In this document: positions 4,942 to 31,182 of the stretch, one piece after another
Position numbering within the stretch: the stretch's first letter is position 1
Layout of the letters: each line of letters opens with the position of its first letter
DNA from: Alphaproteobacteria bacterium UBA6411
Lineage (GTDB): Bacteria > Pseudomonadota > Alphaproteobacteria > CAAGCB01 > CAG-977
Direction of reading: 5' to 3'
Length of the DNA: 64,000 nucleotides
Assembly: GCA_002438565.1 (NCBI GenBank)
Contig: DJPN01000021.1
Coordinates: 61,684 to 125,683, forward strand
The notes under the pieces: generated by a model
The model's database searches: none
Told to the model about the DNA's origin: nothing
The model's input: only the letters and a program-made list of their open reading frames with translations
Program-made: the position numbers and the translations under genes

Positions 4942-5124
4942 GTTTCGCCTCTCAATTTTTTTTCAGGCTAACATCTTGGCGCGACAGAACATGTCGTTTG
5001 AAAAACGGCGTTCCGGTTTTTGAAAGACGACTGTTTTTGTCGCATCGTTATCCCATACTGTTGAAAAGAACGCTTTACGGAAAGCTTGTCGCCCGTTATC
5101 ATTTTTAACAGAAAGGAAAACCTC

Positions 5125-6532: not shown

Positions 6533-6853
6533 ATGTTTGAAAAGAAATTTAACAACTACAGTTATGTCGGGTGCGGAGAATGCGGCATCACAGGGAAAAA
6601 GAAATCCGCTCAAACCCTTTATCGTAATCAGGATTTGAAAACGTATCTGACAAGATATCAATGGGCTTACAGGAACGGGTGTTTTCTCCCCCGTTTGCCT
6701 GACAATTTACGGGAAATCTTTTATGAACTCAAAGGCATGTTCAATGTCGCGGCGGCTTCTATTGATGAAATGCTTGAAGCCGGTCGTTGGTTAAGGCAAG
6801 CCGCTTCTGAAAGTGCAAAACGCAACAAGAGAGTTCAAGGAAAAAGGAGATAA
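6533..6853 (+). CDS. Hypothetical small protein (about 106 aa from MFEKKF)
   Basis: ORF with an aaagga RBS-like sequence upstream of the internal ATG; weak support. Confidence 0.25.
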   Translation: MFEKKFNNYSYVGCGECGITGKKKSAQTLYRNQDLKTYLTRYQWAYRNGCFLPRLPDNLREIFYELKGMFNVAAASIDEMLEAGRWLRQAASESAKRNKRVQGKRR

Positions 6854-6858
6854 CAGCC

Positions 6859-7371
6859 ATGACACAATATAAACAAATGGAAGACCTGTTCGGGTCTTAT
6901 TTTTTAAGCAAACGCGATACGGATATCGCTTTTCGGAACATAAACAAAAACGCGTTACTCAAAGTCGTCAAAGGATATAATGATTATCTGAGTGGAAAAC
7001 TTATGTTTCCTGAAGACACTTACTACGAGGGAATCGGGATAGAAAGCAATGATGAGCAGATTTTGTTTTCGATAAACAATTTGTACCGTTTGTGGGAGAA
7101 ATCACCCTACTGGCTGCAGAAGAAAGACGGGCAAACCTTATACGTCTTCGGCATTAGTTTTTGCGAAAAGCTGAACTCTTTTATTATCGGCGGATACCTT
7201 GAAAACAAAAAAGACGAAGGGCGATTTGTTGCAATCGCGTGGAGTCAACCTGTAAATACCATAGGACTTTTGGGGGACGCTATCATTGCCGATTATATTC
7301 CGGATGGCGTTCGCCTCAAAAAGCGGACTCCGCTTTATCGGCTGTTCACATTCGCTTGCATTGAAAAATAG
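6859..7371 (+). CDS. Hypothetical protein, 170 aa
   Basis: Strong aaggag RBS 9 nt upstream of the ATG; no recognised domain. Confidence 0.5.
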   Translation: MTQYKQMEDLFGSYFLSKRDTDIAFRNINKNALLKVVKGYNDYLSGKLMFPEDTYYEGIGIESNDEQILFSINNLYRLWEKSPYWLQKKDGQTLYVFGISFCEKLNSFIIGGYLENKKDEGRFVAIAWSQPVNTIGLLGDAIIADYIPDGVRLKKRTPLYRLFTFACIEK

Positions 7372-16844: not shown

Positions 16845-18584
16845 TTATTCCCGATACAAGTGGCTTAAATCCAACCCGTCGTATTTCAGCTTGCAATTCA
16901 CCGTTTCGCGCAGGACTTTAAGGCTGACTTCTCCATAATGTTCGGAAAGGCTTGAGCCGCGCTCCCATCCTTGAATACGCGTTACAAACTCCGGATTGGC
17001 TTCATTATTCCGAAACTCGGTACGCACCGTATGACGGAAACTGTGGAAGACGTGACCTTCTTCAAACTTATCCGCTTTGGCTTTGATCCCTTTGTTCAAG
17101 CTGTCTAAAAAACGACCGAACCATTTGGAAATATCATCGGAATAATGTCCTCGTGCATTGACGCGCAGTTCGGGAAACAGCCTCTTTTCTTTGCGCATTT
17201 CTTTCACATAGTTCAAAAAACCGATCTTTATCAATTCATTGTGTAGGGGAACAAGGCGAATCCCCGCCTTTGTTTTGACATGCTTTTCTCCTTCATCGTT
17301 AATGCTGATGACCCAAACATCGTCAATTTGTCGGACATCGTTCGGGCTCAGTTGGCATAATTCGTTACATCTCGCGCCTGTGAAAATCCCCAACAACGGA
17401 ATCCAAAAACGCGCATGTCTCGGATGTGCGTTGCCTTTGATTGCATATCCACGTTTGTCGTCCCGACACCCTGTGTAAATTGGAGCGTTGAAGATATAAC
17501 TCAGTTGCCTTGCCGAAAAAGACAAACGTTTTATTTCGTCTTTTTCATTGGTTGCACACGGAACATCAACCGTATCATACGGATTCTCGATCAGATATTT
17601 ATACTTAACCGCCCAATCGAAAAAGCGTTTGATGACAACGAAGTAATCACCCAATGTTTTTGATCCGATGCATTCCGTCGGGTGTTTCTTTCCCCGTTCT
17701 ATATCTTTCAATACGTTGTATGTATCAGGTTTGCTGCGCGCGCTGTTTTTCGTGATGAACGGTAACAGTTCGACGGCATGTTGCAAGTCTTCCGTCGTTA
17801 CGGAACGCACCGTTTTATCTTTGCCCAAGATCTCTTGTAAAATATGGATTTTCTTGCTGACACGGTTTTTGGAATCGGCGGATTTGTTCTTGCGGGAATT
17901 CTGGTTGTTGTACACCTCCGCCAATGCGTCCAATGTCATATCGGGTTTTAACGGCGTTCTTAACAACATCGGAGAAGAAACGATATTCTCCCCGGTCAGT
18001 CCCGAAGGGACGCCCACAGTCAGACGTTGAGGAGGAATATCTGCTAATCCGATAGCGCAATGATGCATAAAATCGCAAAACTGCATTTCAGCGCGCATAA
18101 ATGCTTCTTCTAAGACTCGTTTGGAAGATTCTGTGGGAAACGGATAATTATTCCGCAGTAAAAAGGACTGACACTTCCGTTCAATAATCACGTAATCCGC
18201 CACGGCATATTTTGAACGCAACTGCGCAAACCGTTCCATATACGGTTCCGGTAACAACGGTTTTCCTGCGCAATTTTCCCGTTCTTCCGCAATTCGGGTC
18301 AGCAAATATTCGTATGCGAACGTTTCCGCTTGACTGCGGTCATAATCCAGCGTGTGTTCGTCCTTGTCGTATCCCATTTTTTTTGCCGTTTTTCCTCTGA
18401 AGTCCAACCGTTCGTACAAGTCCGACATTACCATGATATAGCGTCTTTGCGCAATTTGCTTATTCTTGGTTCTGAGGGACACCCACAGTTGTCTTTTGCC
18501 GACCAGACTACGGAAAGCAGTCGGTACATTCAATACCGCATAATACGATGTCCCACGATTATAAAGGCTCATCGTTACCTGCAA
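16845..18584 (-). CDS. int: Tyrosine integrase (phage/island integrase) adjacent to the tRNA-Gln 3' end
   Basis: N-terminal arm-type DNA-binding-like region; C-terminal HSFRHTVRT ... SEHYGE catalytic motifs; located ~100 bp from the tRNA 3' end, the classic island arrangement. Confidence 0.7.
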   Translation of the reverse strand: MQVTMSLYNRGTSYYAVLNVPTAFRSLVGKRQLWVSLRTKNKQIAQRRYIMVMSDLYERLDFRGKTAKKMGYDKDEHTLDYDRSQAETFAYEYLLTRIAEERENCAGKPLLPEPYMERFAQLRSKYAVADYVIIERKCQSFLLRNNYPFPTESSKRVLEEAFMRAEMQFCDFMHHCAIGLADIPPQRLTVGVPSGLTGENIVSSPMLLRTPLKPDMTLDALAEVYNNQNSRKNKSADSKNRVSKKIHILQEILGKDKTVRSVTTEDLQHAVELLPFITKNSARSKPDTYNVLKDIERGKKHPTECIGSKTLGDYFVVIKRFFDWAVKYKYLIENPYDTVDVPCATNEKDEIKRLSFSARQLSYIFNAPIYTGCRDDKRGYAIKGNAHPRHARFWIPLLGIFTGARCNELCQLSPNDVRQIDDVWVISINDEGEKHVKTKAGIRLVPLHNELIKIGFLNYVKEMRKEKRLFPELRVNARGHYSDDISKWFGRFLDSLNKGIKAKADKFEEGHVFHSFRHTVRTEFRNNEANPEFVTRIQGWERGSSLSEHYGEVSLKVLRETVNCKLKYDGLDLSHLYRE

Positions 18585-18647
18585 AATTCAAAGAGTGTTT
18601 ATTAGCAGGTCTATTAACAGTGCTAATAGATTCCACAGTACAAAAAA

Positions 18648-18682
18648 GCCAAGTTCGTTTTTTTTCAACGACTTGGCCTTTG
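18648..18682 (-). terminator. Rho-independent terminator downstream of tRNA-Gln
   Basis: Imperfect hairpin gccaagttcg/cgacttggc followed by a T-run on the minus strand. Confidence 0.45.
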
Positions 18683-18685
18683 AAG

Positions 18686-18760
18686 TGGCTGGGGCGGCTG
18701 GACTCGAACCAGCGAATGACGGAGTCAAAGTCCGTTGCCTTACCGCTTGGCTACGCCCCA
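18686..18760 (-). tRNA. tRNA-Gln (anticodon UUG)
   Basis: Manual fold: 5' TGGGGCG acceptor, GTAGCCAAGCGGTAAGGC D-arm, anticodon loop CTTTGAC, TTCGAGTCC T-arm, 3' CGCCCCA-G-CCA; 75 nt. Confidence 0.85.
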
Positions 18761-18875
18761 ACAAAGTTATTTTTCTGTATCCTATTTTCCCAATGCCGTC
18801 AAGCATTTTTATGCTTTTGGAAAAATTTTGATTGTTTTTTCCGCCAAATCGGCTATTGTGTCTGTTATTCAAAAC

Positions 18876-18952
18876 GCGCTCGTAGCTCAGCTGGATAGAG
18901 TATCGGCCTCCGAAGCCGAGGGTCGTGGGTTCGAATCCCGCCGAGCGCGCCA
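18876..18952 (+). tRNA. tRNA-Arg (anticodon CCG)
   Basis: Manual fold: GCGCTCG acceptor, GTAGCTCAGCTGGATAGAGT D-arm, anticodon loop CTCCGAA, GTGGGTTCGAATCCCGC T-arm, CGAGCGC-G-CCA; 77 nt. Confidence 0.85.
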
Positions 18953-18956
18953 ACTT

Positions 18957-18985
18957 AAAAAAAATCCCCAAAAGGGGATTTTTTT
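18957..18985 (+). terminator. Rho-independent terminator after tRNA-Arg(CCG)
   Basis: aaaaaaaatcccc-aaaa-ggggattttttt perfect hairpin with a T-run. Confidence 0.6.
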
Positions 18986-19000
18986 GTTGGGGCAAAACGG

Positions 19001-19113
19001 CGCGGAGAAGAACCCGCGGCCGTGGGTTCGGTGAGCGTCAGCGAACGACGCCGTCAGGCGGTCCCGTCAGGGACGAAGCGCATAGCGATGAGCAATCCCG
19101 CCGAGCGCGCCGA
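19001..19113 (+). repeat. tRNA-Arg-associated structured element, copy 1 (homologous to 24411-24517); ends with a copy of the cognate tRNA 3' end
   Basis: Contains ccgtgggttcgg (T-arm-like) ... conserved core gcgaacgacgccgtcaggcgg-hairpin-gacgaagcgcatagcga-gagc ... aatcccgccgagcgcgcc (18/18 identical to the tRNA-Arg(CCG) 3' end). Confidence 0.6.
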
Positions 19114-19126
19114 CTTTTCTCGTTTT

Positions 19127-19879
19127 TTATGCTTTCAGACTTTTTTCAATCGCTTTGACAGCCGCGGGCAGCTGAGAAAACGCCATGATTTCGGCGTCGG
19201 CTTTCGTGCCGCAGTATTCCTGTTCGCCTTGATTTGACCTAAACAGCACCGTTTTAATTCCCAGTTGCGCCGCCCCGAACACGTCGCGGTACATATCGTT
19301 GCCGACAAAGACGACCTCGTCCGCCGTCATTTCCATTTTTTTCAGCGCTTTTTTAAACAACCGTTCGTCGGGCTTGCGGTATCCGTAATCCCCCGACACG
19401 ACAAACGGCCGGAAATAACCGCCCAATCCGACGGAAGCCAATTCCGCCTCCGCCCATTGAGCCTGCCCGTCCGACACGGCCGCCAGTTTGTATTTCTTTT
19501 TCAACCCGTCCAGTGTTTTTTTCACATCGGGATACAGCTGCAGCCGGCGGCGCGACGCCGCGCGAAACACTTCGGCGGTGATTGCGGGCAAAAGCTTGCG
19601 TTTTTTGTGCGGCAATTTGCGGGTGAAATCCGTCGCATGCCCCTCAATCACTTCGGCGAACAAAGCAACTATGTCGAATTCGGGATACGGTTCGTTACTG
19701 TCCGCGCGCTGCCGCTTGTTGATTTCAAAGTATAATTCTTTGAGCTTCTCGGGCTTGATTTTAATCCCTTGATAATCCAGAAAAACAGACACCATGCGGT
19801 AAGCATCCAAGCTTTCCTCGTCCGTCCAAATGTCGCTCAGCGTTCCGTTGATATCAAAAATCAAACCGCGAATCATGCC
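19127..19879 (-). CDS. HAD-superfamily hydrolase (motif I FDINGTL variant)
   Basis: HAD motif I near the N-terminus (MIRGLIFDINGTL); start taken at the internal ATG. Confidence 0.6.
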   Translation of the reverse strand, partial: GMIRGLIFDINGTLSDIWTDEESLDAYRMVSVFLDYQGIKIKPEKLKELYFEINKRQRADSNEPYPEFDIVALFAEVIEGHATDFTRKLPHKKRKLLPAITAEVFRAASRRRLQLYPDVKKTLDGLKKKYKLAAVSDGQAQWAEAELASVGLGGYFRPFVVSGDYGYRKPDERLFKKALKKMEMTADEVVFVGNDMYRDVFGAAQLGIKTVLFRSNQGEQEYCGTKADAEIMAFSQLPAAVKAIEKSLKA

Positions 19880-20940
19880 TGCAGTCCTCCTTGCAGGCAT
19901 TTTTCCGCCTCGTCAATCAAACGGCGGCGATAACCGCGGTCAATCCAAAAATTGCGTCCGATGCGCAACAAAGTCGTTCCCATATAAAACGGCACGCGTT
20001 TTGTTACGGCGTTGAATGCGGCTTCCGCATCGGGAAAGCGGCTGGCATATTCGCGCAAAAAGTGGTCAATGAACGGCTCGGCGGCCAGTCCGTCTTCCTT
20101 GGCGGACATAAAAAAATGCTTCAGCTCGCCCGCCATGCGTCCGATATCCGACGCGCGGTCTGCATACTGGCAGCGTTCCAAATCAAACGTTTTCACAACG
20201 TCGAAATCCCCGAAAACAAAGTTCGCGGGCGTTGCGTCGCCGTGTATCAGAACTTGGCAGTCTTCGCCCATTTCCGTTTTATCGCGCCATTGATCGCGCA
20301 AAGCGTAAAGAACATCTGCTTCGCCGTCCGCCAGCAAACTTTCATCCTGTTCAATGACTCGGTTCATATATTGGCACGCTTCGCTAAAGTCGGCGGGAAC
20401 ATCTATCGCCGTCCTGTTGTGCAGCTCCGCAAAGAAATGCGCCAGCGCGCCCAGTTTGTCATACAGCAACTGTTCGTCCTTGTCGTCAATGGCGCGGGAA
20501 ATGATATCGCCCAGCAGTTCGCCCGTACAAAATTCGACCGCCAGAAAGTTGCTCAAATTTTCATTTTTGCCCAAAGGCGCGGCAACGTAAAACGGTTCTT
20601 CGTCAAAGCCGTACGACCGCACTTTGACCAAATTTCCGTATTCGCGTTCCAAGCGTTTTTCGTCCTCGAAAAACTTGCCGATGATGCGCGCGCCCGTTTG
20701 GCGTTCTTCGTACAAAAACACGTCGTTCGATCCGTTCAGCCGCCAGACGTGATAACAGGGGTCTTCACAAAAATCCGCAATTTGCGGCTGAATGTCGTAT
20801 TTCAAATAGCCGTACAAATCATCGTCCGTTTCAACCGTACCCAAATAAATCATTGCCGTCCTCCTGTTTAGAAAGCGTATTGAACCGCCGCAGACAAAGT
20901 TGATATCACATTGTTGTCCGACCTTTTTTGATCCGCCCAC
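19873..20940 (-). CDS. Phosphotransferase-family (APH/choline-kinase-like) kinase
   Basis: Brenner-type catalytic motif VLIHGDATPANFVF and a D..D..G pattern characteristic of APH-fold kinases. Confidence 0.55.
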   Translation of the reverse strand: MGGSKKVGQQCDINFVCGGSIRFLNRRTAMIYLGTVETDDDLYGYLKYDIQPQIADFCEDPCYHVWRLNGSNDVFLYEERQTGARIIGKFFEDEKRLEREYGNLVKVRSYGFDEEPFYVAAPLGKNENLSNFLAVEFCTGELLGDIISRAIDDKDEQLLYDKLGALAHFFAELHNRTAIDVPADFSEACQYMNRVIEQDESLLADGEADVLYALRDQWRDKTEMGEDCQVLIHGDATPANFVFGDFDVVKTFDLERCQYADRASDIGRMAGELKHFFMSAKEDGLAAEPFIDHFLREYASRFPDAEAAFNAVTKRVPFYMGTTLLRIGRNFWIDRGYRRRLIDEAEKCLQGGLQA

Positions 20941-23900
20941 AGTTTCAGCCGCGTCCTGCGCGACAGATTGCTTTCCAGCCCGACCGACAAGGATAAATAG
21001 TCTTTGTCCGCGTCTTCCGCAAGCGATTCAAAGCTTGTCCGCGACGCGTCGTTGATAAAGTAAGCGGTCGTTGTCGGATTTCCGCCTGTCAGCAGTCTTT
21101 GCCAGCCGGCATCCAAAGTCAGAACGGCGTCCGCCCATATATAGCTCAGCTGCACCCCGGGCTGAATGGAAACGGACGTGTCGTTCGCGTCCGAAACCGA
21201 CAGGTTGATTGCGGACACTTCGCCTTTTTCCTTATAAGCGTCTTGATGCGTATAAGCTACATTCGCGCCGACATAAGGCCTCAATCCGAATGAATGGTCG
21301 CGGCGCGGCAAGAGCCCCAAAGTGTAACCGGCATTGATTCCGCCCTCGACCGTGTATCCGTTATATGACGATTTGCTGATGGCGGAAAGTCCCGTGATAT
21401 CGGTTTTGCGTCGTCCTTCGTAACGCTGGACGCCGCCCAAAACAACCGCATCCACATTGACGCGGCCAAAGCGCGTCCCTGCGTAAACGCCCGCGCGGTA
21501 ATCCTGCACAATCATTCTGTCGCCGTCTTGGGCCGAACGCGTATGGGCGAATCCCGCCGTCAAACCAAGCAAAAAGTCGTCGGACGATTGCCAATCAAAT
21601 CCGAACTGTCCGCCGACCGTATCCGATTTTTGCGTGCTGCGGCTTGTCTTTCCGGACACGCCGAAACGCGCATGACCGCCCAAAGCTTGCGCCCAAATTT
21701 TTGCCGTCGAAACGTCGTCGCCGCCCGACCTGCCGCGGTAATAACGCCCCCGATACCGGAATTGCGGCGTTTGATTGCGCAAAGCGGGAATGACTTCGCG
21801 CTGACTGCGGATTTGAAACAAATGCGAATAAACGTTGTTCGCCACAGTCCCCGACAGCGGCAGGCTTTGATTCCGCACGGCTTGAATTTGGTCGCGCACG
21901 GTGTTTATCGTTTTTTTCAGTTCCGTTCCCGATTGATAATAATAGCCGCGGAATTCTTTGTTGCCGTCCGTTTTAAACATTTTGTCGATTGCTTTGGCAA
22001 CGGACAGTTCTTTCGCGTCCAGTTCGGGCATGTTTGCCGGATCGCTCATATTCAAATAGGTAACCGTCATATTCAAACTGTTCCCGCTTTTGACCATCTT
22101 GCCGTCAACCAGCCCGATTAAGCGGATGGAGTCTTTGAAACCGCTCCCCACGGTCAAAGAGGACGACGCTTCCAGCACAGTATAAGTCTTTTCATCGTTG
22201 TACATCGCCAAAACCGATGTCGCCGCCGTAAATTGGCCTTTTGTCAAGACCGCCTCTTCCACGGTCATTTTCAGCAAATCGCCGTTCGCGTCGGTCAGCA
22301 AGGCGATATTGCCTTCGTTCGTAAACTTTTTCACGGAAAACGACGAACCGATTGTCGCCCCTTCCTTGTTGTTCAGCTCGCCGCCGGAAACGGCGACGGT
22401 TTCAAGCACGCCGTGGTTGTTGAAAACCGCCGAATCCGTATTTTGAATCGTCCCGCCCAAAGTTCCCGCATAATAATTGAACGTTCCCTCGTTAATCAAA
22501 ACCGCCGTTTCGGACGCCGTCGCCGCAAGCGAACCACCTTTCATCGTAAACGCCGATTGATTTTTCAAACCGCCCGTCAGCGCGCCGCCCGTCATGGTCA
22601 AAACGCCCGCGTTGCCGACTTCCCCCGACAATGTTCCGCCGGAAACTTCGGTTTTGCCCGAATTGCTCCACGCCCCCGCAACCGAACCTTTGCTGATTGA
22701 AGCCGTCGTTCCCGCCGCGATGTCCACCGCGCCCGCAATCGCCGCGCCGTCGACAACCAGTTTTCCCGTTCCGCCTGTTTTTGCGCCGCCTTCCAAAGCT
22801 CCAGTCAGCTTCAACGTTCCCGCGGAAACGGACGTGTCACCTTTATAAGTGTTTTTGCCGCTCAGCGTCAGCGTTCCCTCGCCCGTTTTTTCAAAACCCA
22901 ATTCCTCTGTCGTGTTTCGCTGGGAAATATCATTTGAAAACACAACGTCGAATTTCGTCGGAATTTCCAGCGTATATACGGCGGAATCCATGCGCGAACC
23001 GTCCAAAGCCCCCAATCCTTTCAAAGCTTTGCCGACATCCAAAATGCCCGCGCCGTACGCCTGCGCATAAGTAATTGACGCAAATTCGTACATTTCTCCG
23101 TCTTTCGTGCAGGATGTCTTTCCTTCGTTGCAGGTCAAGCCCAACTGCTTGATAACATCGTCTTGCGTAACAACCGCTTCGTTTTCGCCCGCCTTGTTGT
23201 CCGTAAAATAAACAATTCTGTATGCCGTATCGCCGTCTTCATCGGTCAGCTGCTGTTCCGCATAGGCCGAAAAGCCCGAAAAATCATTATTGGCCGTCGT
23301 CAGCAATACGTCACCGATTTGCTTGCCGCTCAGAAACGAAAACTTTTCCTGCACCAAAGCCGCCGCGCCCGATACAATCGGAGCCGCCGCCGACGTCCCG
23401 CTGACAGCCTCGTAACCGTTATTCCCTTCTCCGCCCGTTGCCGCGTAAATACCGACACCGGGGGCGGAAATCGTCCAATTCGCCGCATCCCCCGCCAAAT
23501 TTGTAAAGCTTGCCAAAAAAGAGGAACTGCTTTTGTCTTGCGAGGAATCAAACGCGACAACGTTAATCACATTTTTCAGCGTGCCGTCTGCAATCGGCGC
23601 CGCCGCGGGCAATAACGGATTGACGCCCATTTCGTTTCCCGCAGAAGCGACCAGCAGCTTGTTGGACACTTTACGCGCCAAATCCGCATATGCCTTTTTT
23701 GCCTCTTCGGTCAAAGAACTGCCCCAACTGGCATTAATAATTTTAACGTCTTTGTACGCATCCGACGCCAATGTATCGAAAATAGAGCTTATCGTCTGAC
23801 AGGTCGTGCAAACCGAATTGTCTTCGCTGGCTATGTCCTTTCCCGAAAAAGCCAGCAAATACGAATTGTACGCCACCCCCTGCAAACCCAGATCGTTTTG

Positions 23901-24185
23901 CGCCGCACCGATAACCGAAGCAACCGCCGTGCCGTGATTTTGCCGATGATCGCCCGACAGCGTCATTTTGTCCTTAAATTCCTGATGCGTCGCCCAAAAA
24001 CCGTTGTCAACGATTGCGACGCGCACATCCTTGCCGGACAGCCCTTCTTCATACGCCGAGGACAAGTTGATGGCGTCCCACGCGGATTTATTGACATTGT
24101 ATTCGGCATCCGAAGCCGACGCGGCGGCGGGGAACACCAACAAAGACAAAACAAACGGCAGTTTATTCATAGCGGCAACTTTCAA
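20868..24185 (-). CDS. Subtilisin-like (S8) serine protease autotransporter, NalP/AspA-like, 1105 aa
   Basis: Signal peptide; S8 catalytic triad motifs VAIVDNGF (D), HGTAVASVIGA (H), GTSAAAPIVSGAAAL (S); C-terminal beta-barrel ending ...AAVQYAF. Confidence 0.8.
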   Translation of the reverse strand: MKVAAMNKLPFVLSLLVFPAAASASDAEYNVNKSAWDAINLSSAYEEGLSGKDVRVAIVDNGFWATHQEFKDKMTLSGDHRQNHGTAVASVIGAAQNDLGLQGVAYNSYLLAFSGKDIASEDNSVCTTCQTISSIFDTLASDAYKDVKIINASWGSSLTEEAKKAYADLARKVSNKLLVASAGNEMGVNPLLPAAAPIADGTLKNVINVVAFDSSQDKSSSSFLASFTNLAGDAANWTISAPGVGIYAATGGEGNNGYEAVSGTSAAAPIVSGAAALVQEKFSFLSGKQIGDVLLTTANNDFSGFSAYAEQQLTDEDGDTAYRIVYFTDNKAGENEAVVTQDDVIKQLGLTCNEGKTSCTKDGEMYEFASITYAQAYGAGILDVGKALKGLGALDGSRMDSAVYTLEIPTKFDVVFSNDISQRNTTEELGFEKTGEGTLTLSGKNTYKGDTSVSAGTLKLTGALEGGAKTGGTGKLVVDGAAIAGAVDIAAGTTASISKGSVAGAWSNSGKTEVSGGTLSGEVGNAGVLTMTGGALTGGLKNQSAFTMKGGSLAATASETAVLINEGTFNYYAGTLGGTIQNTDSAVFNNHGVLETVAVSGGELNNKEGATIGSSFSVKKFTNEGNIALLTDANGDLLKMTVEEAVLTKGQFTAATSVLAMYNDEKTYTVLEASSSLTVGSGFKDSIRLIGLVDGKMVKSGNSLNMTVTYLNMSDPANMPELDAKELSVAKAIDKMFKTDGNKEFRGYYYQSGTELKKTINTVRDQIQAVRNQSLPLSGTVANNVYSHLFQIRSQREVIPALRNQTPQFRYRGRYYRGRSGGDDVSTAKIWAQALGGHARFGVSGKTSRSTQKSDTVGGQFGFDWQSSDDFLLGLTAGFAHTRSAQDGDRMIVQDYRAGVYAGTRFGRVNVDAVVLGGVQRYEGRRKTDITGLSAISKSSYNGYTVEGGINAGYTLGLLPRRDHSFGLRPYVGANVAYTHQDAYKEKGEVSAINLSVSDANDTSVSIQPGVQLSYIWADAVLTLDAGWQRLLTGGNPTTTAYFINDASRTSFESLAEDADKDYLSLSVGLESNLSRRTRLKLWADQKRSDNNVISTLSAAVQYAF

Positions 24186-24287: not shown

Positions 24288-24364
24288 CGGTCCCGTAGCT
24301 CAGCTGGATAGAGCAACAGCCTTCTAAGCTGTGGGTCCCGCGTTCGAATCGCGGCGGGATCACC
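24288..24364 (+). tRNA. tRNA-Arg (anticodon UCU)
   Basis: Manual fold: GGTCCCG acceptor, GTAGCTCAGCTGGATAGAGC D-arm, anticodon loop CTTCTAA, CCGCGTTCGAATCGCGG T-arm, CGGGATC-A-CCA; 77 nt. Confidence 0.85.
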
Positions 24365-24410
24365 AAAATAAAAACCCTCGACTTGTTCGGGGGTTTTTGT
24401 TTTATGTGAA

Positions 24411-24517
24411 ATCCGCCGGCGAGAAGGACGCGGGACGCGTTCGGCCGCCCTTGGCGACGACGCCGTCAAGCGGGGGCGAAAGCCCCGAGCGTTAGCGAGC
24501 AACCGCGGCGGGGTGAT
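24411..24517 (+). repeat. tRNA-Arg-associated structured element, copy 2 (homologous to 19001-19113)
   Basis: gcgagaaggacgcgggacgcgttcgg ... gcgacgacgccgtcaagcgg-hairpin(gggggcgaaagcccc)-gagcgttagcgagc ... aaccgcggcggggtgatac (degenerate copy of the tRNA-Arg(UCU) 3' end). Confidence 0.6.
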
Positions 24518-24548
24518 ACTTTTTATTTTTTGATTTTGGCTCTAAAAT

Positions 24549-24560
24549 CAAAAAAAAAAA
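24549..24560. repeat. Homopolymeric A12 tract within an AT-only inverted repeat (ttttttgatttt / aaaatcaaaa)
   Basis: Direct count of 12 consecutive A. Confidence 0.8.
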
Positions 24561-24819
24561 ACGCACTTAAATCAAAGCGTTACAACTAATCAGATTTAAC
24601 GTCCGTTTGATTCGGGAATTTCGGGCAAAATCTGCCGCCACTCGAAATGATAGAAAATTTGTCATTCTTGCAAAATATTATTGCAATCAAAAGCTAAGTT
24701 TGCTATATGCAATAAAAACGGAGGATATCTTTGAAAAAATCTTTCGTTCAAACGAGGAAGGCAGGGGGATAAAATCGAATGAACACAGCATTTGTCAGAT
24801 ATTGCGGATATATAAAATG

Positions 24820-24831
24820 CCCCCCCCCCCC
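24820..24831. repeat. Homopolymeric C12 tract ~120 bp upstream of hldE, just downstream of a TTGTCA-15-TAAAAT promoter-like sequence
   Basis: Direct count of 12 consecutive C; lies in the intergenic/5' leader region of the heptose operon. Confidence 0.8.
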
Positions 24832-24951
24832 TATACGAACGGGAAGCCCCGCTTATGTCCAGAGCAATCAGCTTAAAACACGGGGGAAAAGTGCCGTCAA
24901 CGCGCTTCTCAATCTAAATCCCGTTCACTTGATAAATTGAGGAGAGGCTTC

Positions 24952-26424
24952 ATGCCCTTACTGGCTTCGTATATTAGAAATTTCAAAAATTTACGCATTC
25001 TGGTTATCGGAGACATTATGCTGGATCGTTTCGTATACGGCAAAGTCGAACGCATTTCGCCCGAAGCGCCTGTCCCCGTGTTTGATTTCAAAAAATCGTC
25101 CGACATGCTGGGTGGAGCGGGAAACGTTGTCGCAAATTTAGTGTCTTTGGGGGTGAAGACCTCTTTTATCGGCGTGGTCGGGCAAGATGACAGCGCGCGG
25201 GAAATTTCATCCTTGTTGGGAAAATTGGGGGCGTGTCATCATTTGATTCGGCTGAAAAACTATCCGACAATCGTCAAAACGCGCTTGATTGCCGGCAACA
25301 CGCATTTGCTGCGCGTCGATTGCGAAGAAAAATGGTTTACGCCGGATTCTGTTTTGCCGACCATTCGTTCCATTATTGAAAAAGCGGTAAAAAATGCGGA
25401 TTTGGTTCTTTTGTCGGATTATGCCAAGGGTGTTTTGGCCAAATCGACGGCGCAGGCGATTATCGCCGAATGTTGCAAAGCGGGTAAAAAAGTCCTTATA
25501 GATCCGAAAGGTTCCGATTGGTCGAAATACGAAAACGCAACTCTGGTCAAGCCGAATTTGAAAGAATTCAAAGAAGTGTGCGGACTTTCCGTCAATCCGT
25601 CGGATTCCGATTTTACGAAACATCTGTCCGACGGCGCAAAGCTGATTTTTAAACGCTATAAAATCAAAAGCCTGCTGATTACCTTGTCCGAACACGGTAT
25701 GGCGTACATTCATTCGTCCTCTCCCGACGAGGTTTATCAAATTCCCACCCAAGCCAAAGAAGTTTTCGACGTATCGGGTGCGGGGGATACGTCTTTGGCG
25801 ACCTTTGGCGCGGCATTCGGCGCGGGCGCTTTGCCCAAGGATGCGATGAAGCTGGCAAACACGGCGTCGGGCATAGTCGTCGGCAAAGTCGGAACGGCGT
25901 GCATTTCCGCAAACGAATTGGAAAACGCCCTGTCCGAACGCAATCCGGCCGCCGTGCCGAAAAGCAAAATCGTATCGCCGGAACAAGCCGCCGAAATCGC
26001 CGTTGAATTAAAGAAAAGCGGCAAAAAAACGGGCTTTACCAACGGCTGTTTCGATTTATTGCATTTGGGACATTTGCGATCGTTTGAAAATGCCAAAAAG
26101 GAATGTGACGTTTTGTTCGTCGGCGTGAATTCGGATGCGAGCGTCAAGCGCCACAAAGGCGATTCCCGCCCGATCCAAGATGAAAAAACGCGCGCTTTGC
26201 TGGTCGCTTCATTGGAAACGGTGGATTATGTCATCGTTTTTGACGACGACACGGCGCTTCCTTTGGTCGAAAAAATCCGTCCCGACGTTATCGCGAAAGA
26301 GGGTTATTTGCTTCAAAACTGGCCGGAGGCGCAATTCGTCGTTTCTTACGGCGGCCGCGCCGTTACGTTAAAGCGCGTTGACGGCTATTCCACCACGCAA
26401 ACCGTTGAAAGGATTAAACACTGA
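24952..26424 (+). CDS. hldE: Bifunctional D-beta-D-heptose 7-phosphate kinase / D-beta-D-heptose 1-phosphate adenylyltransferase
   Basis: N-terminal PfkB-like kinase domain and C-terminal cytidylyltransferase-like domain (GCFDLLHLGHLRSFENAKKECDVLFVGVNSD); gaggagagg RBS before the internal ATG. Confidence 0.85.
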   Translation: MPLLASYIRNFKNLRILVIGDIMLDRFVYGKVERISPEAPVPVFDFKKSSDMLGGAGNVVANLVSLGVKTSFIGVVGQDDSAREISSLLGKLGACHHLIRLKNYPTIVKTRLIAGNTHLLRVDCEEKWFTPDSVLPTIRSIIEKAVKNADLVLLSDYAKGVLAKSTAQAIIAECCKAGKKVLIDPKGSDWSKYENATLVKPNLKEFKEVCGLSVNPSDSDFTKHLSDGAKLIFKRYKIKSLLITLSEHGMAYIHSSSPDEVYQIPTQAKEVFDVSGAGDTSLATFGAAFGAGALPKDAMKLANTASGIVVGKVGTACISANELENALSERNPAAVPKSKIVSPEQAAEIAVELKKSGKKTGFTNGCFDLLHLGHLRSFENAKKECDVLFVGVNSDASVKRHKGDSRPIQDEKTRALLVASLETVDYVIVFDDDTALPLVEKIRPDVIAKEGYLLQNWPEAQFVVSYGGRAVTLKRVDGYSTTQTVERIKH

Positions 26425-26990
26425 TGCAGCAGGAAATCATTGCTTCGTTTCAGGAAAACGTTGCCGGTTTTACGGAAATCCAAACTTTGGCGCCCGTTAT
26501 CGAAAAAATCGCGCTGATATGCATTGACGCGATCCGCAACAACCGCAAAGTGATGTTTTGCGGCAATGGCGGTTCGGCGGCGGATTCGCAGCATTTGGCG
26601 GCGGAGCTGGTCGGGCGGTATAAAATGAACCGCCCCGCAATGAATGCGATAGCTTTGACAACGGACAGTTCGATTTTGACGGCGATCGGGAACGATTACG
26701 GTTATGACACGATTTTTGAACGCCAGGTCGAAGGCTTGGGGCAAAAAGGCGACGTTTTGGTCGGCATATCGACTTCGGGCAATTCAAAAAATGTGCTGCG
26801 CGCTTTTGAAATGGCGCGCAAAAAAGGCGTTTCGACGGTTGCTTTTACGGGAAAATCGGGCGGCAGAATGAAAGAAACGGCCGATATTTGCGTCAACGTG
26901 CCGTCCGACGTCACAAACCATATTCAAGAAATGCACATTGCCGTCGGGCATTTGATTTGCGGATTGGTCGAAAGGGTTGTCAATGGCTAA
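26424..26990 (+). CDS. gmhA: Phosphoheptose isomerase (SIS domain)
   Basis: SIS-domain motifs ...VMFCGNGGSAADSQHLAAEL ... GISTSGNSKNV...; start overlaps the hldE stop. Confidence 0.85.
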   Translation: MQQEIIASFQENVAGFTEIQTLAPVIEKIALICIDAIRNNRKVMFCGNGGSAADSQHLAAELVGRYKMNRPAMNAIALTTDSSILTAIGNDYGYDTIFERQVEGLGQKGDVLVGISTSGNSKNVLRAFEMARKKGVSTVAFTGKSGGRMKETADICVNVPSDVTNHIQEMHIAVGHLICGLVERVVNG

Positions 26991-27495
26991 AGCTTTGTTT
27001 TTGGATCGCGACGGTACAATCAACATTGATTACGGATACGTTTTTGAACCCGAACGGTTTGAATTCGTTGACGGAATCTTTGATTTATGCCATGCGGCGC
27101 AATCCAAAGGCTTTAAAATCATTGTTTGCACGAACCAATCGGGCATTGCGCGCGGGTATTTCACCGAAGCCGACTTTCAAAAAATTACGGCGCATATGGT
27201 GAAAAAGTTTTCTGAACAACGCATTGAAATCGCGGACGTTTTTCATTGTCCGACATTGGACGGCATTGACCGCAAGCCCAATACGGGAATGTTCGTCAAA
27301 GCGCGCGACAAACACGGAATCAATATGGCGGCAAGTATTTCCTTGGGTGACAGCGAACGCGACGTGATTGCGGGAATAAACGCAGGCGTCGGAACAAATT
27401 ATTTGTTGTCGAAAAAGAAAATCGCCGCTCCGATTTGCCCCGTTGTTTCAAGCTGCCGCGAATTGGCGGAACTCATTGAAAAAGGTGTCGAATGA
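26977..27495 (+). CDS. gmhB: D,D-heptose 1,7-bisphosphate phosphatase (HAD, histidinol-phosphatase-like)
   Basis: ALFLDRDGTIN motif I, CTNQSGIARGYF motif; overlaps the gmhA end. Confidence 0.8.
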   Translation: MSMAKALFLDRDGTINIDYGYVFEPERFEFVDGIFDLCHAAQSKGFKIIVCTNQSGIARGYFTEADFQKITAHMVKKFSEQRIEIADVFHCPTLDGIDRKPNTGMFVKARDKHGINMAASISLGDSERDVIAGINAGVGTNYLLSKKKIAAPICPVVSSCRELAELIEKGVE

Positions 27496-28616
27496 ATTAT
27501 TTTGACAAGCTGGACCATCGATCCGCCCGCATGCGCGAAAAATATCCGACTCGTCCGCGCAAAGCCGCCGCGTCAATGTTGATGTGGACTGTTAAAAACC
27601 TGTTTCCAAAGGCGGACAAAACCGTTTTTACGGATGGCAGGCTGCATATTGCCGTCAGCGTTTTGGGCGGATTGGGCGATTTGTTTTTTGCCGCGCGGTA
27701 TGTCGAAAGGCTGTCCCGTTATTTTGGACAAAAAGTTACCGTTTGCATGGAAAATAGCGCGGCGTACGCTCAGCCTGTTTTTGGCGGATTAAGCGGCGTT
27801 GAAGCGATTGTTGCCCCAAACGGCGCGCCGTGCGATATTAAAATTCGATTGGTTCGTTTTCCGGAAATCGTTTTTTGCGACTTTAAACGCTTAAAAGCCG
27901 TCGGCGACAGCAAAATCAAAGCTTATGTGCAGTCTTTGCTTGATTTTCGATCCGGCTTTCCTCTGGTATACAACAACGATTATTTTGGGTATCGCTATGC
28001 CCAAGCAAAGGGCAAAAAACGCGAAGATCAACCGGATATTGACGGGATTTTGCATTTGGCGGACGTTTCGCTGAACATACCTGCGGCCGATCCGCAAATT
28101 GGCAAGCCTTTTATCACGATTCAAACTGGATACGGCGAACATTTTAAGGGTGTGGAATCCGAAACGCGCCAATGGGGTGTCGAAAAATATGAACGGCTGA
28201 TTGAATTGCTAAAGCAGGAATACCCGCGTTTTAAGACTGTTCAAATCGGGGCGGATTATCATCCGCGCATCCAAGAAACGGATTTCGATTTGCGTGGCAA
28301 AACATCAATTCCGGAAGTGTTCGGTTTGCTGAAAAACGCCGCTCTGCATATTCAGCAGGAAGGCGGATTTGCAATCGCGCGGCACTATTTGTGCGGCAAA
28401 CCGTCGGTCGTTTTGTTCGGCCCGACGGATGAAAAATTCTTGGGGTTTCCGGAAAATTTAAATCTTCGCGCGCCGGGATTCGAATGCATATGCGAAGGAC
28501 TGACCCAAAAATGGTATCAAAAATGTTTGAAAACGGGCGGTTGCGCGGCGTGCATGCGGGCGTTGTCCGCACAAACCGTGTTTGAAAAAATCAAAGAAAG
28601 CAAAATATTGGAGTAA
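27492..28616 (+). CDS. Glycosyltransferase family 9 (LPS heptosyltransferase-like) with a ~60-aa N-terminal extension
   Basis: GT9-type C-terminal region (...LRGKTSIPEVFGLLKNAALHI...GPTD...); operon position after gmhB. Confidence 0.65.
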   Translation: MNYFDKLDHRSARMREKYPTRPRKAAASMLMWTVKNLFPKADKTVFTDGRLHIAVSVLGGLGDLFFAARYVERLSRYFGQKVTVCMENSAAYAQPVFGGLSGVEAIVAPNGAPCDIKIRLVRFPEIVFCDFKRLKAVGDSKIKAYVQSLLDFRSGFPLVYNNDYFGYRYAQAKGKKREDQPDIDGILHLADVSLNIPAADPQIGKPFITIQTGYGEHFKGVESETRQWGVEKYERLIELLKQEYPRFKTVQIGADYHPRIQETDFDLRGKTSIPEVFGLLKNAALHIQQEGGFAIARHYLCGKPSVVLFGPTDEKFLGFPENLNLRAPGFECICEGLTQKWYQKCLKTGGCAACMRALSAQTVFEKIKESKILE

Positions 28617-28619
28617 TTT

Positions 28620-29828
28620 ATGAAAAATTATTTTGAAAAACTTGAACGCAGAGTTCAAAAATATAAAACAAAATATGCAAATCGCCCGCGCAAAGCCGCA
28701 TTCAAACTCGCCTTGTGGAATACATTGTGCGTGTTTAAACGGCACAAACGTCAAGATATCGTTGATTTACAAAGCATAACAAAACCTGTCAACAAAATTG
28801 CACTTGCAATTAACGGCGGCATAGGCGATTACATCACAGCAATAAATTATGCTGCATACCTTTATAATTTTTTAAACAAACAAACACCGATAGATATTTT
28901 TGTAAAAAATCCCAAAAGCATGAAAACTCTTTTCAGCAAATCTGTCAATTTTGATTTTTTTGAACGGGATTCCATTCATGAAAAAAAGGAATATCCGCTT
29001 AAACTGAATTTGAATAGATTTCCAGAGATACTATACTGCAATGAAACCGCCCTGCATGAAATGATGCCGAATGTTATTCCTTTGCTCAACGCTTGGGAAA
29101 AAATTAAAAAAGAAGCGGGGTTGTATTTTGAAATTGACCCCCGCGCAGACGCCTTAACCGTGCAGTACGCGCAAGTTAACGGTGCCAAAAAAAGAATACA
29201 GCAACCGGATATTGACGGAATATTAGGTGTTAAGGAAGAACACCTTATAAAACTTTATCCCGAAAGTACAACGGAAGTTTTAGAAAAATTCGGATTAAAC
29301 GATTGCGTTTTTATCACAATGAACCGCGGAACGGATACAGGCAACAAAGATAACGAAGTTACGCGTATGTGGCCCTTGGAAAATTATGCAAAACTTGTAA
29401 AATTGATAAAAAACAAATATCCTCGATGCAAAATCGTGCAGTTGGGATATTCCCCCGAATGGTGCAGGCTCATAGACGGCATTGATATTGATTTGCGCGG
29501 AAAAACAACGCTTTTTGAACTGAAGTCCCTGCTTTTTGCATCCGCCTTGCACATAGATTACGAAGGAGGAATGGTTCATTTACGAAAAGCGTTAGGGGTG
29601 GGAAAATCCATAGTCCTGTTTGGTCCGACAAACCCTAACTGGCTAGGATATGATACAAATATCAATATCTGCACAAACAAATGCTGTTTTTGTGAAAATC
29701 TCACTCCGAATTGGCAAAAATATTGCTCGAATCATAAATTTCCACACATTTGCATGGAAAGCATAACTCCTGAAATGGTATTCAATAAAGTCAACGCAGT
29801 TTTATCTTCTGTAAAAAGCCGAGTGTAA
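28620..29828 (+). CDS. Second, paralogous GT9-like glycosyltransferase; AT-rich codon usage
   Basis: N-terminus MKNYFEKLERRVQKYKTKYANRPRKAAFKLALW parallels the N-terminus of the upstream gene; noticeably lower GC. Confidence 0.65.
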   Translation: MKNYFEKLERRVQKYKTKYANRPRKAAFKLALWNTLCVFKRHKRQDIVDLQSITKPVNKIALAINGGIGDYITAINYAAYLYNFLNKQTPIDIFVKNPKSMKTLFSKSVNFDFFERDSIHEKKEYPLKLNLNRFPEILYCNETALHEMMPNVIPLLNAWEKIKKEAGLYFEIDPRADALTVQYAQVNGAKKRIQQPDIDGILGVKEEHLIKLYPESTTEVLEKFGLNDCVFITMNRGTDTGNKDNEVTRMWPLENYAKLVKLIKNKYPRCKIVQLGYSPEWCRLIDGIDIDLRGKTTLFELKSLLFASALHIDYEGGMVHLRKALGVGKSIVLFGPTNPNWLGYDTNINICTNKCCFCENLTPNWQKYCSNHKFPHICMESITPEMVFNKVNAVLSSVKSRV

Positions 29829-29842
29829 AACACTCGGCTTTT
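29812..29842. terminator. Bidirectional rho-independent terminator (agccgagtg-taaaa-cactcggct flanked by A- and T-runs)
   Basis: Perfect 9-bp stem with a 5-nt loop between convergent genes. Confidence 0.6.
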
Positions 29843-29849
29843 CCCTGTT

Positions 29850-30206
29850 TCAGTATGGATATTTCAGACGAATTTCCGCTTTTGTGTTCAGCCACAGCGT
29901 TTTCTTTTCATCCGCATCCGGACTGTTTGTCGCAACCGCTTCATCATAGTCGAATTTCAACGGATCGGCGAATGTGCAAAAAGCTTGCTGTCTGTTTTTG
30001 CGGGCGGTTTCCCTCGCGATTTCAAGCGGAACGGACGGCAACGCGCTTTTCGCATAATATCCGCCGTCATATCCGACAACGATTTCTTCATCGGTTTGCG
30101 ACACGGTGAAATCGTTTAATCCGATAATTTTGCAGTTTTCGGTCAATTCCGCTTCCGTTTTGTTAAAAGCGACGATTTTCCCGTTTTTGGTTGCTGTATG
30201 CATCAG
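29850..30206 (-). CDS. Small protein (~118 aa from MHTATKNG) translationally coupled to the tail-fibre gene; possible tail-fibre chaperone/assembly factor
   Basis: TGATG stop/start overlap with the upstream tail-fibre gene; the longer ORF-track version (start 30380) overlaps the fibre gene and is unlikely. Confidence 0.4.
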   Translation of the reverse strand: MMHTATKNGKIVAFNKTEAELTENCKIIGLNDFTVSQTDEEIVVGYDGGYYAKSALPSVPLEIARETARKNRQQAFCTFADPLKFDYDEAVATNSPDADEKKTLWLNTKAEIRLKYPY

Positions 30207-31072
30207 TTGTTTTCCCCTTGTGCGTAAATAAATCTGAACACGTTTGTTTTGCCCTGCAGGCTGTAGCCGATTGCAACGGAACTTCCTTTTCGCGCAGGCA
30301 AAGCCACAGAGAGCTCGTATCCCGCATGCGACGATACGATGTTGTATCCCAAATTCGACATGTCTTTGATACACACCCATTCACCGGCGTATTTGGCGTC
30401 TTTTGCCAACACGAACCACCCGTCCGCGGGTGCCGTGTAAAAATGCCCGCTTTCCTGCAATGTCAAATCAACGTATTTACCGCTCGGCATGCTTAAATTT
30501 GAAACAACGGATTTCCCCTCTGCTGTCAAATTGCCCAAATCCGCATTTGCTTTTGTTTCCAGCATCGCCGCCGTATTGACCTCCGATGACGCGGCGTTCG
30601 CTGCAGACGCTGTTGCGGCGGCCGCTTTCTCGACAGCCGTTTGGGCGGCCGCAGTGCAATCGGAAACCGCTTTTCTAATGCTGGGAATCAAGCTGTCCGC
30701 CGCCGTGTCGTCGAAAATATCCACTGTTACGGCGCGCGCGGATTTTTCCGCCAGCTGTTGCACCTGCATCGTCAGCTTGTCAAAGTTGCGTTCCAGCGTT
30801 TCGGCGTGCAAAATCTCGTTGTCGCGGTAGTCCGTTTCCTGCGTCAAAGGCACTTCGCGCACAATCGCGATTTCCGCCCCGTTTTCGGGAGCGTCCGCAA
30901 ACACCAGATTGCCGCCTTTGACCGTCCAGTCCGTCCGTTCCGTCTGTATGTCGTTCTTTTTCTGCCTGACTTTGATATGCTCCTTTTCCAAAAAGGAAAA
31001 CGGGATTGCAAACTCTTTCGCAACCCCGTTTCCGATATAAATCACCTTGTTTGTTTGACTGCTTACCGTCAT
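30203..31072 (-). CDS. Phage T7-type tail-fibre protein (N-terminal Phage_T7_tail-like domain, Ala-rich shaft, C-terminal tip), 289 aa
   Basis: KVIYIGNGVAKEFAIPFSFLEKEHIKV and DNEILHAETLERNFDKLTMQVQQLAEKSA resemble the T7 gp17 N-terminal region as recalled from memory; gagagga RBS 7 nt upstream. Confidence 0.6.
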   Translation of the reverse strand: MTVSSQTNKVIYIGNGVAKEFAIPFSFLEKEHIKVRQKKNDIQTERTDWTVKGGNLVFADAPENGAEIAIVREVPLTQETDYRDNEILHAETLERNFDKLTMQVQQLAEKSARAVTVDIFDDTAADSLIPSIRKAVSDCTAAAQTAVEKAAAATASAANAASSEVNTAAMLETKANADLGNLTAEGKSVVSNLSMPSGKYVDLTLQESGHFYTAPADGWFVLAKDAKYAGEWVCIKDMSNLGYNIVSSHAGYELSVALPARKGSSVAIGYSLQGKTNVFRFIYAQGENN

Positions 31073-31086
31073 TTTTTATCCTCTCA

Positions 31087-31112
31087 ATAAAAAAGCGGGG
31101 ATTTTCCCCGCC
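31087..31112 (-). terminator. Rho-independent terminator after the adenosine-deaminase gene (gcgggga-tttt-ccccgc plus T-run on the minus strand)
   Basis: Hairpin plus T-run read on the minus strand. Confidence 0.55.
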
Positions 31113-31182
31113 GTTCACAGTCAACGCACTTTCTCAATCTTACAGCATATTGTGATTATTTTTTCATGGATGTCAAGGCGCT

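Follow-up and report, generated by a model that had tools for sequence, protein, structure and literature searches.

Elements behind two tRNA-Arg genes of an uncultured gut alphaproteobacterium are probably distant members of the RtT family

In the contig DJPN01000021.1 of Alphaproteobacteria bacterium UBA6411 (positions 61,684 to 125,683; this stretch of 64,000 nt is called the window below), two GC-rich segments of about 110 nt lie directly behind two different tRNA-Arg genes, and each finishes in an exact or degenerate copy of the 3' end of its own tRNA. What are these segments, named E1 (behind tRNA-Arg(CCG)) and E2 (behind tRNA-Arg(UCU)), and how does one conserved core get framed by four strands of the upstream tRNA, which is a puzzle of the whole family discussed here? 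E1 and E2 are probably distant members of the RtT family (Rfam RF00391), with a unit consisting of a terminator-like hairpin and a structured segment of ~110 nt. RtT has been in the databases for decades and has been regarded as a peculiarity of enterobacteria and their tyrT operon. With E1 and E2, the family would be widened to a second bacterial class and its cognate tRNAs would number at least five. What is new is the bacterial class and the two cognate tRNAs; the design itself is that of the already known family.

E1 starts 46 nt behind tRNA-Arg(CCG) and E2 45 nt behind tRNA-Arg(UCU), all on the plus strand (Table 1), and the element was likewise found directly downstream of a tRNA on the same strand in 12 related loci. 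Both window copies are single units without a CCA end. The sequence AATCCCGCCGAGCGCGCC has exactly two copies in the window, one at 18934-18951 within tRNA-Arg(CCG) and one at 19094-19111 at the end of E1, with 18/18 matches. In the case of tRNA-Arg(UCU), no second copy of the 3' end was found in the window at up to three mismatches, and therefore the E2 end is truly degenerate; the same tRNA-Arg(UCU) element in the relative L002 (5553-5658) finishes in a perfect cgcggcgggatcacca.

When E1 and E2 were aligned as plain sequences, the alignment was limited to a core of ~21 nt (z=4.0; nhmmer E=2.9). The 17-mer ACGACGCCGTCARGCGG is restricted to 19045-19061 (E1) and 24457-24473 (E2) within the window, and the hairpins named H3 in Table 1 occupy the same position in both elements and are three compensatory pairs apart. 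Homology of the whole elements is concluded because a structure-aware search, collinear blocks and identical placement agree: the covariance model R2, built without any tRNA-Arg(UCU) copy, recovers E2 at full length (38.5 bits, E=2e-7). This result bears out the preliminary description of this DNA, which had placed homologous elements of ~110 nt after the two tRNA-Arg genes at coordinates that hold within a few bases. Its account of the cognate ends, exact in E1 and degenerate in E2, also stands for the window, and L002 supplies the perfect end that E2 lacks.

The relation to RtT was seen in both directions. In a permissive scan of 18600-19200, the Rfam RtT model matched E1 with 25.3 bits over model positions 1-130 (E=0.012 after correction for 4227 families), and a nhmmer profile made from five E. 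coli RtTs gave E1 as its top match in the window (E=6.4e-4). In the other direction, model R2, which consists of 11 gut-alphaproteobacterial tRNA-Arg(CCG) copies only, was run with filters off on 72.6 kb. It matched the four E. coli tyrT RtTs (41-47 bits; E 2e-9 to 5e-8) and two E. coli proK RtTs (24-28 bits; E 7e-5 to 8e-4), all at full length, and its next-best score was a background of 17 bits. E1 itself is scored at 127-136 bits by the models R1 and R2. The covariance-model matches between RtT and the alphaproteobacterial copies are thus reciprocal. By these scores, the distance between E2 and E1 is about equal to that between E1 and the E. coli elements. The RtT traits that were tested and found are the tRNA-adjacent position, the cognate 3' end, the reciprocal homology and, in the relatives, the tandem units.

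The prototype RtT copies are those of the E. coli K-12 tyrT-tyrV locus (L001), where four copies (133-137 bits) are present, three distal ones in tandem and one between the two tRNA genes; the tyrT repeat is classically given as 178 bp x 3.14. Each tyrT unit reads ggggaaggatgagaagcttcgaccaaggttcga, core, aatccttcccccaccacca, which is the 5' half of the tRNA-Tyr T-arm, an insert of ~68 nt and the tRNA-Tyr 3' end. Behind the tRNA-Pro(CGG) gene of E. coli (proK) come, in this order, a terminator hairpin, an RtT copy (101 bits) with AATCCTCTATCACCGACCA at its end, the same hairpin once more and a partial unit. The proK copy was recovered with a query coverage of at least 80 % in 2668 of the 5426 E. 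coli genomes, and the number of places with RtT is 1-14 per E. coli genome. A shorter RtT (61-62 bits) lies between the tRNA-Lys(UUU) genes of Klebsiella and ends in the tRNA-Lys 3' end. As the RtTs of Tyr, Pro and Lys all end in the 3' end of their own tRNA, the cognate end is a family trait.

Like E1 and E2, the tyrT RtT lies behind a tRNA on the same strand and has the design of a ~19-nt tRNA 3'-end copy including CCA. The block order is also shared: a closing helix, GAGAAG, a hairpin ending in GGTTCG, GAGCG.CAGCGA, two small hairpins, CGAAGCGC..AGCG and then GAG.AATCC. The tandem arrays with a final partial unit are shared by tyrT and the relatives of the window. In contrast to tyrT, E1 and E2 are found in a human-gut alphaproteobacterial host behind Arg(CCG) and Arg(UCU) tRNAs, have a sub-threshold or absent Rfam score, carry a terminator-like hairpin between tRNA and element (tyrT is without one), do not conserve the Tpr mini open reading frame and are single units without CCA. 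The proK RtT is closer in layout (tRNA, terminator hairpin, element with cognate 3' end), but its sequence is largely diverged, as the R2 scores indicate. The minimum free energy (MFE) fold of the proK copy resembles E1 and E2 in the closing helix, the b:c hairpin and four small hairpins, whereas the Klebsiella tRNA-Lys RtT is shorter and without the b:c hairpin and H1.

Some annotation matters at the proK locus were also recorded. In K-12 (L058, NC_000913 3707600-3709400), the full and partial RtT behind proK (locus ~800-985, minus strand) are unannotated in the curated record. In other strains, the NCBI pipeline labels the proK copy 'RtT sRNA, processed from tyrT transcript', which is misleading for a tRNA-Pro-linked copy. 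The partial K-12 proK unit is interrupted by a repetitive extragenic palindromic (REP) element (naRNA4 match).

The anatomy was read from an alignment of four full-length types (Tyr, Pro, Arg-CCG and Arg-UCU), in which every element contains four tRNA-derived strands (a, b, c and d) matching the upstream tRNA. Strand a, at the 5' end, is formed by the last acceptor 5' bases and the T-stem 5' strand (GGGGAAGGA in Tyr; CGGCGcGGA and CCGCCGgCG in the two Arg types, with one bulged base each); that of E1 looks like tRNA acceptor positions 6-7 joined to the T-stem 5' strand, a single C being bulged out. Strand b is GAA plus a copy of the T-stem 3' strand and is followed, after a short loop, by strand c, the T-stem 5' strand plus TTCG. 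Accordingly, gaacccgc of E1 is GAA with the T-stem 3' strand copy, and gtgggttc is the cognate T-stem 5' strand with the T-loop TTC. Strand d is AAT, the T-stem 3' strand, the acceptor 3' strand and NCCA; in E1, it comprises the T-loop 3' part, the T-stem 3' strand, the acceptor 3' strand, the discriminator and CC of tRNA-Arg(CCG), and a flanking G stands in place of the final A of CCA (CC/G). Conserved purine-rich junctions were observed between a and b (GA(U)GAGAAG) and ahead of d (GAGYAA). The core has the order GAGC-loop-GCGA (H1), H2, H3, a second GAGC-loop-GCGA-like motif (H4) and GAGYAA. RNAalifold and the MFE fold of E. coli proK (55 % of the ensemble) both give the closing helix a:d, the hairpin b:c and four small hairpins.

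A conserved insert of ~62 nt in the T-loop of a duplicated tRNA 3' half had been proposed in the preliminary description. This anatomy is correct, and the tyrT units are of the same design; what had been missed were the upstream segments, namely the 5' strand complementary to the 3'-end copy and the copy of the T-stem 3' strand, and the RtT family had not been recognised. All four tRNA-like strands match the upstream tRNA while the core stays conserved. This offers a comparative handle on whether RtT is a functional tRNA mimic, a by-product of recombination or something mobile.

In the model-guided alignment, which was fitted to the structure, 92.7 % of the cells were paired and double changes were found in 15 of 29 pairs. 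This pairing level was reached by none of 500 shuffles, and slid controls were 33-45 % paired. Covariation independent of tRNA descent was observed in H3 (the three compensatory pairs) and in H2 (CG to UA changes), so that the covariation earlier noticed in the internal hairpin is upheld. When variants of strand b in the Arg(CCG) lineage were compared, b:c pairing was kept in 89 % versus 80 % for a:b; a:d was 89.8 % paired, and c:d never varies. Between the topology a:d with b:c and the alternative a:b with c:d, these sequences would modestly favour the former, b:c being modestly better kept. The E1 MFE fold takes another closing helix than the comparative one.

We also considered a coding reading of the element as a Tpr-like peptide and rejected it. 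It is because no ATG is present at the equivalent place of E1, the E. coli Tpr frame meets a stop, and the length differences between copies are not multiples of 3.

When genome and metagenome collections were searched with sequence patterns (one scan each), real matches were found in human-gut Alphaproteobacteria only. The relatives carrying the element include the metagenome-assembled genomes HGM16788, HGM16787 and 'Rhodospirillaceae' UMGS1296 and several gut metagenome contigs; one relative, L039, is 95-98 % identical to the window. In the genome collection, 13 of the 19 loci were chance matches in GC-rich coding DNA with no adjoining tRNA. The metagenome pattern was broad, being common to E. 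coli RtT and E1 with the tRNA-Tyr type excluded; 26 of its 32 loci were due to chance, the six real ones all represent the same gut alphaproteobacterial tRNA-Arg(CCG) locus, and no third lineage was seen. The scan of viral contigs returned an E. coli tyrT fragment only. BLAST of E1 against plasmids and phages gave no match, and that of E. coli RtT gave enterobacterial records only. In the 64-kb window, the models R1 and R2 found E1 and E2 alone, and in 67 kb of related loci all copies that they found are linked to tRNA-Arg. In the window and these loci, the search for further copies of the core, as the preliminary description had advised, yielded them behind tRNA-Arg genes only. An exact look-up of the protein encoded by the HAD-hydrolase gene beside E1 returned no record, and the Neisseria uptake sequence, sought as a hint at the taxon, is absent.

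In the relatives, the element forms tandem arrays with a unit of 162 bp (spacer hairpin plus element), and the spacer hairpin is repeated with every unit in L011, L013 and L002. Three full units and one partial unit are present in L011, and two plus a partial in L013 and L040. The tRNA-Arg(UCU) array of L002 has one full and one partial unit, L022 likewise has 1-2 plus a partial, and the tRNA-Arg(UCU) of L040 is without an element. The full units of the relatives finish in a complete CCA. Three variants of the element 3' end were observed, CGAGCGCG (window), CGGGCGCG (L011) and CGGGCGCA (most others), and they are usually the same as the local variant of the tRNA acceptor stem, a pattern that points to concerted evolution of element end and tRNA. 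The flank is the same, but the point at which the arrays stop against it varies, as unequal crossover and deletion would produce.

Two further observations concern these contigs. L011 (CAVCSV010000040.1) bears the label Limosilactobacillus gorillae but shares synteny and 72-90 % identity with the alphaproteobacterial window, so that mis-binning of this contig is almost certain. RtT-like arrays at L011 ~6800-7000 and ~1000-1400 (minus strand), L013 ~4700-5100 (minus strand) and L040 ~6900-7000 (minus strand) are interrupted by a second common repeat (ttcgtcatcg..gaagccctttaggg.tgtggcgatccatttgcag ... cccgtgcaag.at.gg), which may be a small mobile element inserting in or beside units.

Several results weigh against the assignment of E1 and E2 to the RtT family or against their transcription. 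The E1 score of 25.3 bits is below the Rfam gathering score of 45 bits, which is an operational criterion and not a biological one, and E2 gave no match to the Rfam RtT model at E<=10. The curated RtT consensus ends in the tRNA-Tyr 3' end, and the model looks dominated by enterobacterial, mostly tRNA-Tyr-linked copies; copies of the E1/E2 type are missed by it in current annotation. When the tRNA-derived parts were removed from the E. coli profile, the core matched E1 at E=0.37 only, and therefore generic T-loop sequence supplies part of the signal. The covariation of a:d and b:c across tRNA types would arise in any case: because both were copied from complementary tRNA strands, it is not independent evidence of selection. 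The single-sequence MFE z-scores are not significant (E1 -1.65; E2 -0.76). A few copies (L032, L013b and L039) have a one-base mismatch to their own tRNA, so that homogenisation is incomplete. As to expression, a consensus promoter and terminator scan gave nothing useful at the E1 or E2 locus, and no promoter-like site was found by it upstream of either element. A strong terminator-like hairpin lies between each tRNA-Arg and its element, and read-through transcription may therefore be rare. The 18953-18997 spacer looks like a bidirectional intrinsic terminator, and its hairpin was not called in the consensus terminator scan, probably because the A-run pairs with the T-run. The missing CCA of both window copies (E1 runs into the flank at CC/G and the E2 end is degenerate) speaks against an abundant RNA, and E1 and E2 may be decaying single units.

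For RtT-family elements of this kind, the following mechanism can be proposed. The direct repeat of 18-19 nt formed by the tRNA 3' end would drive gain and loss of units by unequal homologous recombination, and the same repeat would keep the element copy homogenised with the tRNA by gene conversion. Read-through transcripts of the tRNA gene would, by analogy with E. coli, be trimmed by the tRNA 3'-end machinery to a CCA-type end, and a compact RNA with a:d as its closing helix would thereby be set free, as has been reported for E. coli rtT RNA. The E. coli RtT homologue accumulates as RNA, and RtT is linked to the stringent response in the literature. Bosl and Kersten are said to have found in 1991 that E. 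coli tyrT read-through transcripts are processed by the tRNA 3'-end machinery to a CCA-type end. rttR carries a non-coding RNA (ncRNA) annotation in the E. coli record, and differential expression of it has been reported. Among the three candidates named in the preliminary description, a co-transcribed structured RNA from the tRNA precursor is the one that gains support, which would come by analogy from the description of the homologous E. coli RtT.

A more active origin of the family design is conceivable and seems rather unlikely to us: RtT elements might be modular and tRNA-templated, the core and its GA-rich junction acquiring the four strands from the upstream tRNA. If true, active retargeting or copying would be implied (e.g. 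T-loop recombination or RNA-templated repair), as would spread between gut Gamma- and Alphaproteobacteria, and the RNA could act as a mimic of the cognate tRNA in processing or starvation signalling.

The other two candidates of the preliminary description fared less well than the structured RNA. The first, that E1 and E2 are attachment (att) site scars of islands or prophages targeting the tRNA 3' end or T-loop, is largely refuted, and we regard it as very improbable. Direct repeats of a tRNA 3' end are a hallmark of such integrations, and E1 resembles attL/attR repeats in having a second copy of the T-stem 3' and acceptor 3' strand downstream of an intact tRNA. A 579-aa tyrosine recombinase is also encoded beside the neighbouring tRNA-Gln, and the 6.7-kb segment missing from L039 and L002 starts inside E2. 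However, that recombinase sits on the far side of tRNA-Gln, and no integrase is linked to either tRNA-Arg. In contrast to attL/attR, tRNA and repeat are only ~140 bp apart, what lies between them is a spacer and a conserved structured core rather than island DNA, and the T-arm copy is split by 62 nt, whereas a crossover in the T-loop would give a contiguous T-arm. Moreover, whole units stand in tandem in the relatives and are conserved across two bacterial classes, homologues are present at three tRNA loci of E. coli and Klebsiella without a nearby integrase, and no similarity to phage records, nor to plasmid records outside Enterobacteriaceae, was found. The second, a miniature non-autonomous mobile element inserted in tRNA T-loops or 3' halves (the core being the element and the cognate segments its target), is considered unlikely. 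It would account for the same core standing between TTCG and AAT of the cognate T-arm in two classes and five tRNAs, namely Tyr, Pro and Lys in Enterobacteriaceae and Arg-CCG and Arg-UCU in the window. The patchy spread in the pattern scans (Enterobacteriaceae and one gut alphaproteobacterial lineage) could reflect transfer, and the tRNA-Arg(UCU) of L040 stands without the element. Against it, R1 and R2 never found the core inside an intact tRNA or apart from its cognate tRNA in the window and related loci, and E1 and E2 have no terminal inverted repeats, target-site duplications or associated transposase. A simple insertion would explain strands c and d but leave the upstream cognate strands a and b unexplained, and the spacer belongs to the tandem unit, as unequal crossover would have it. 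Such an element may nevertheless be how the family came to stand behind new tRNAs.

It is also improbable that the element acts as DNA only, either as a by-product of tandem duplication kept by gene conversion or as a terminator or insulator for convergent transcription, with no role of an RNA. The terminator-like hairpin ahead of each unit would suit this explanation, as would the position of E1 next to the 3' end of a HAD-hydrolase gene that is convergent with it (the stop codon is 14 nt away), the absence of a proper CCA end in both window copies, the variable copy number of the arrays and the partial units cut at different points. Yet Gamma- and Alphaproteobacteria share the block order and the hairpins, with compensatory changes in H2 and H3, which is unexpected for unselected DNA, and the RNA accumulation known from E. 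coli, together with the annotation and reported expression of rttR, argues for an RNA. RtT-family membership of E1 and E2 is therefore the reading we prefer. The coordinates of the features are collected in Table 1; ARAGORN found three tRNA genes in the window.

Table 1 Positions of the tRNA genes, spacers, elements and element parts in the window
Feature	Position	Strand	Evidence
tRNA-Gln(UUG)	18686-18760	-	ARAGORN; Rfam tRNA
tRNA-Arg(CCG), cognate tRNA of E1	18876-18952	+	ARAGORN; Rfam tRNA 67.4 bits
Spacer 3' of tRNA-Arg(CCG), A-run/hairpin/T-run aaaaaaaatcccc-aaaa-ggggattttttt	18953-18997	+	fold -16.1 kcal/mol, z=-2.97
E1, GC-rich RtT-like element behind tRNA-Arg(CCG)	18998-19113	+	Rfam RtT, nhmmer, models R1/R2
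E1 segment a (cggcgcgga), closing-helix 5' strand	18998-19006	+	pairs with 19096-19103; read from sequence
E1 b:c hairpin (gaacccgc, loop ggcc, gtgggttc)	19010-19029	+	RNAalifold; helix 2 pair counts
E1 conserved core, T-loop position	19030-19093	+	pair counts of helices 3-6; block order as in E. coli RtT
E1 H1 (gagc-gtca-gcga)	19033-19044	+	
E1 H2 (cgcc-gtca-ggcg)	19049-19060	+	
E1 H3 (gtccc-gtca-gggac)	19061-19074	+	
E1 H4 (cgc-ata-gcg), then junction atgagca	19079-19087	+	
E1 segment d	19094-19111	+	18/18 exact repeat of tRNA-Arg(CCG)
tRNA-Arg(UCU), cognate tRNA of E2	24289-24365	+	ARAGORN; Rfam tRNA 66 bits
Spacer 3' of tRNA-Arg(UCU), terminator-like hairpin aaaaaccctcgacttgttcgggggttttt	24366-24409	+	fold -19.1 kcal/mol, z=-5.75
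E2, GC-rich RtT-like element behind tRNA-Arg(UCU)	24410-24519	+	model R2; relative L002
E2 a (tccgccggcga)	24412-24422	+	
E2 b (ggacgcgg)	24426-24433	+	
E2 c (cgcgttc)	24436-24442	+	
E2 H1 (cgcc-ctt-ggcg)	24446-24456	+	
E2 shared core	24457-24473	+	
E2 H3 (ggggc-gaaa-gcccc)	24473-24486	+	
E2 H4 (gc-gtta-gc)	24489-24496	+	
E2 d (aaccgcggcggggtgatac), degenerate	24501-24519	+	

At the E2 locus, the alignment of L039 and L002 with the window stops at 24465 and is taken up again at 31207. This break lies inside the E2 core, and therefore the 3' half of E2 belongs to the indel, which would account for the degenerate E2 end; recombination within the element is the most likely way in which this half came in or was retained. 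In L039 and L002, the last unit of the array is partial and breaks off exactly behind ACGACGC(C), and the left junction of the window segment lies inside the conserved core of E2, directly after ACGACGCC. The segment itself (24466-31206, ~6.7 kb), which the window has, is missing from L002, and in L039 66 nt stand in its place. It contains hldE, gmhA, gmhB and a heptosyltransferase-like gene and looks like an ADP-heptose/lipopolysaccharide cassette.

On the other side of the tRNA-Arg(CCG) locus, the gene of the 579-aa tyrosine recombinase (16845-18584, minus strand) lies just 3' of tRNA-Gln(UUG). L039 has no similarity to the window left of 18675, and the GC content drops to 0.37 at 14-16 kb. 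An island that integrated at tRNA-Gln probably makes up the DNA left of 18675; a search at up to three mismatches for another tRNA-Gln 3' end that would bound this putative island found none. Most of the gap between the two tRNA-Arg loci is occupied by a gene for a 1105-aa subtilisin-type, autotransporter-like serine protease (20868-24185, minus strand). Beside the variable segment, a 754-aa protein (31183-33447, minus strand) has a match below the curated cutoff (E=5.5e-44) to RdrB, the anti-phage adenosine deaminase of RADAR, and the region of 32-36 kb after this RdrB-like gene has a low GC content of 0.33-0.37.

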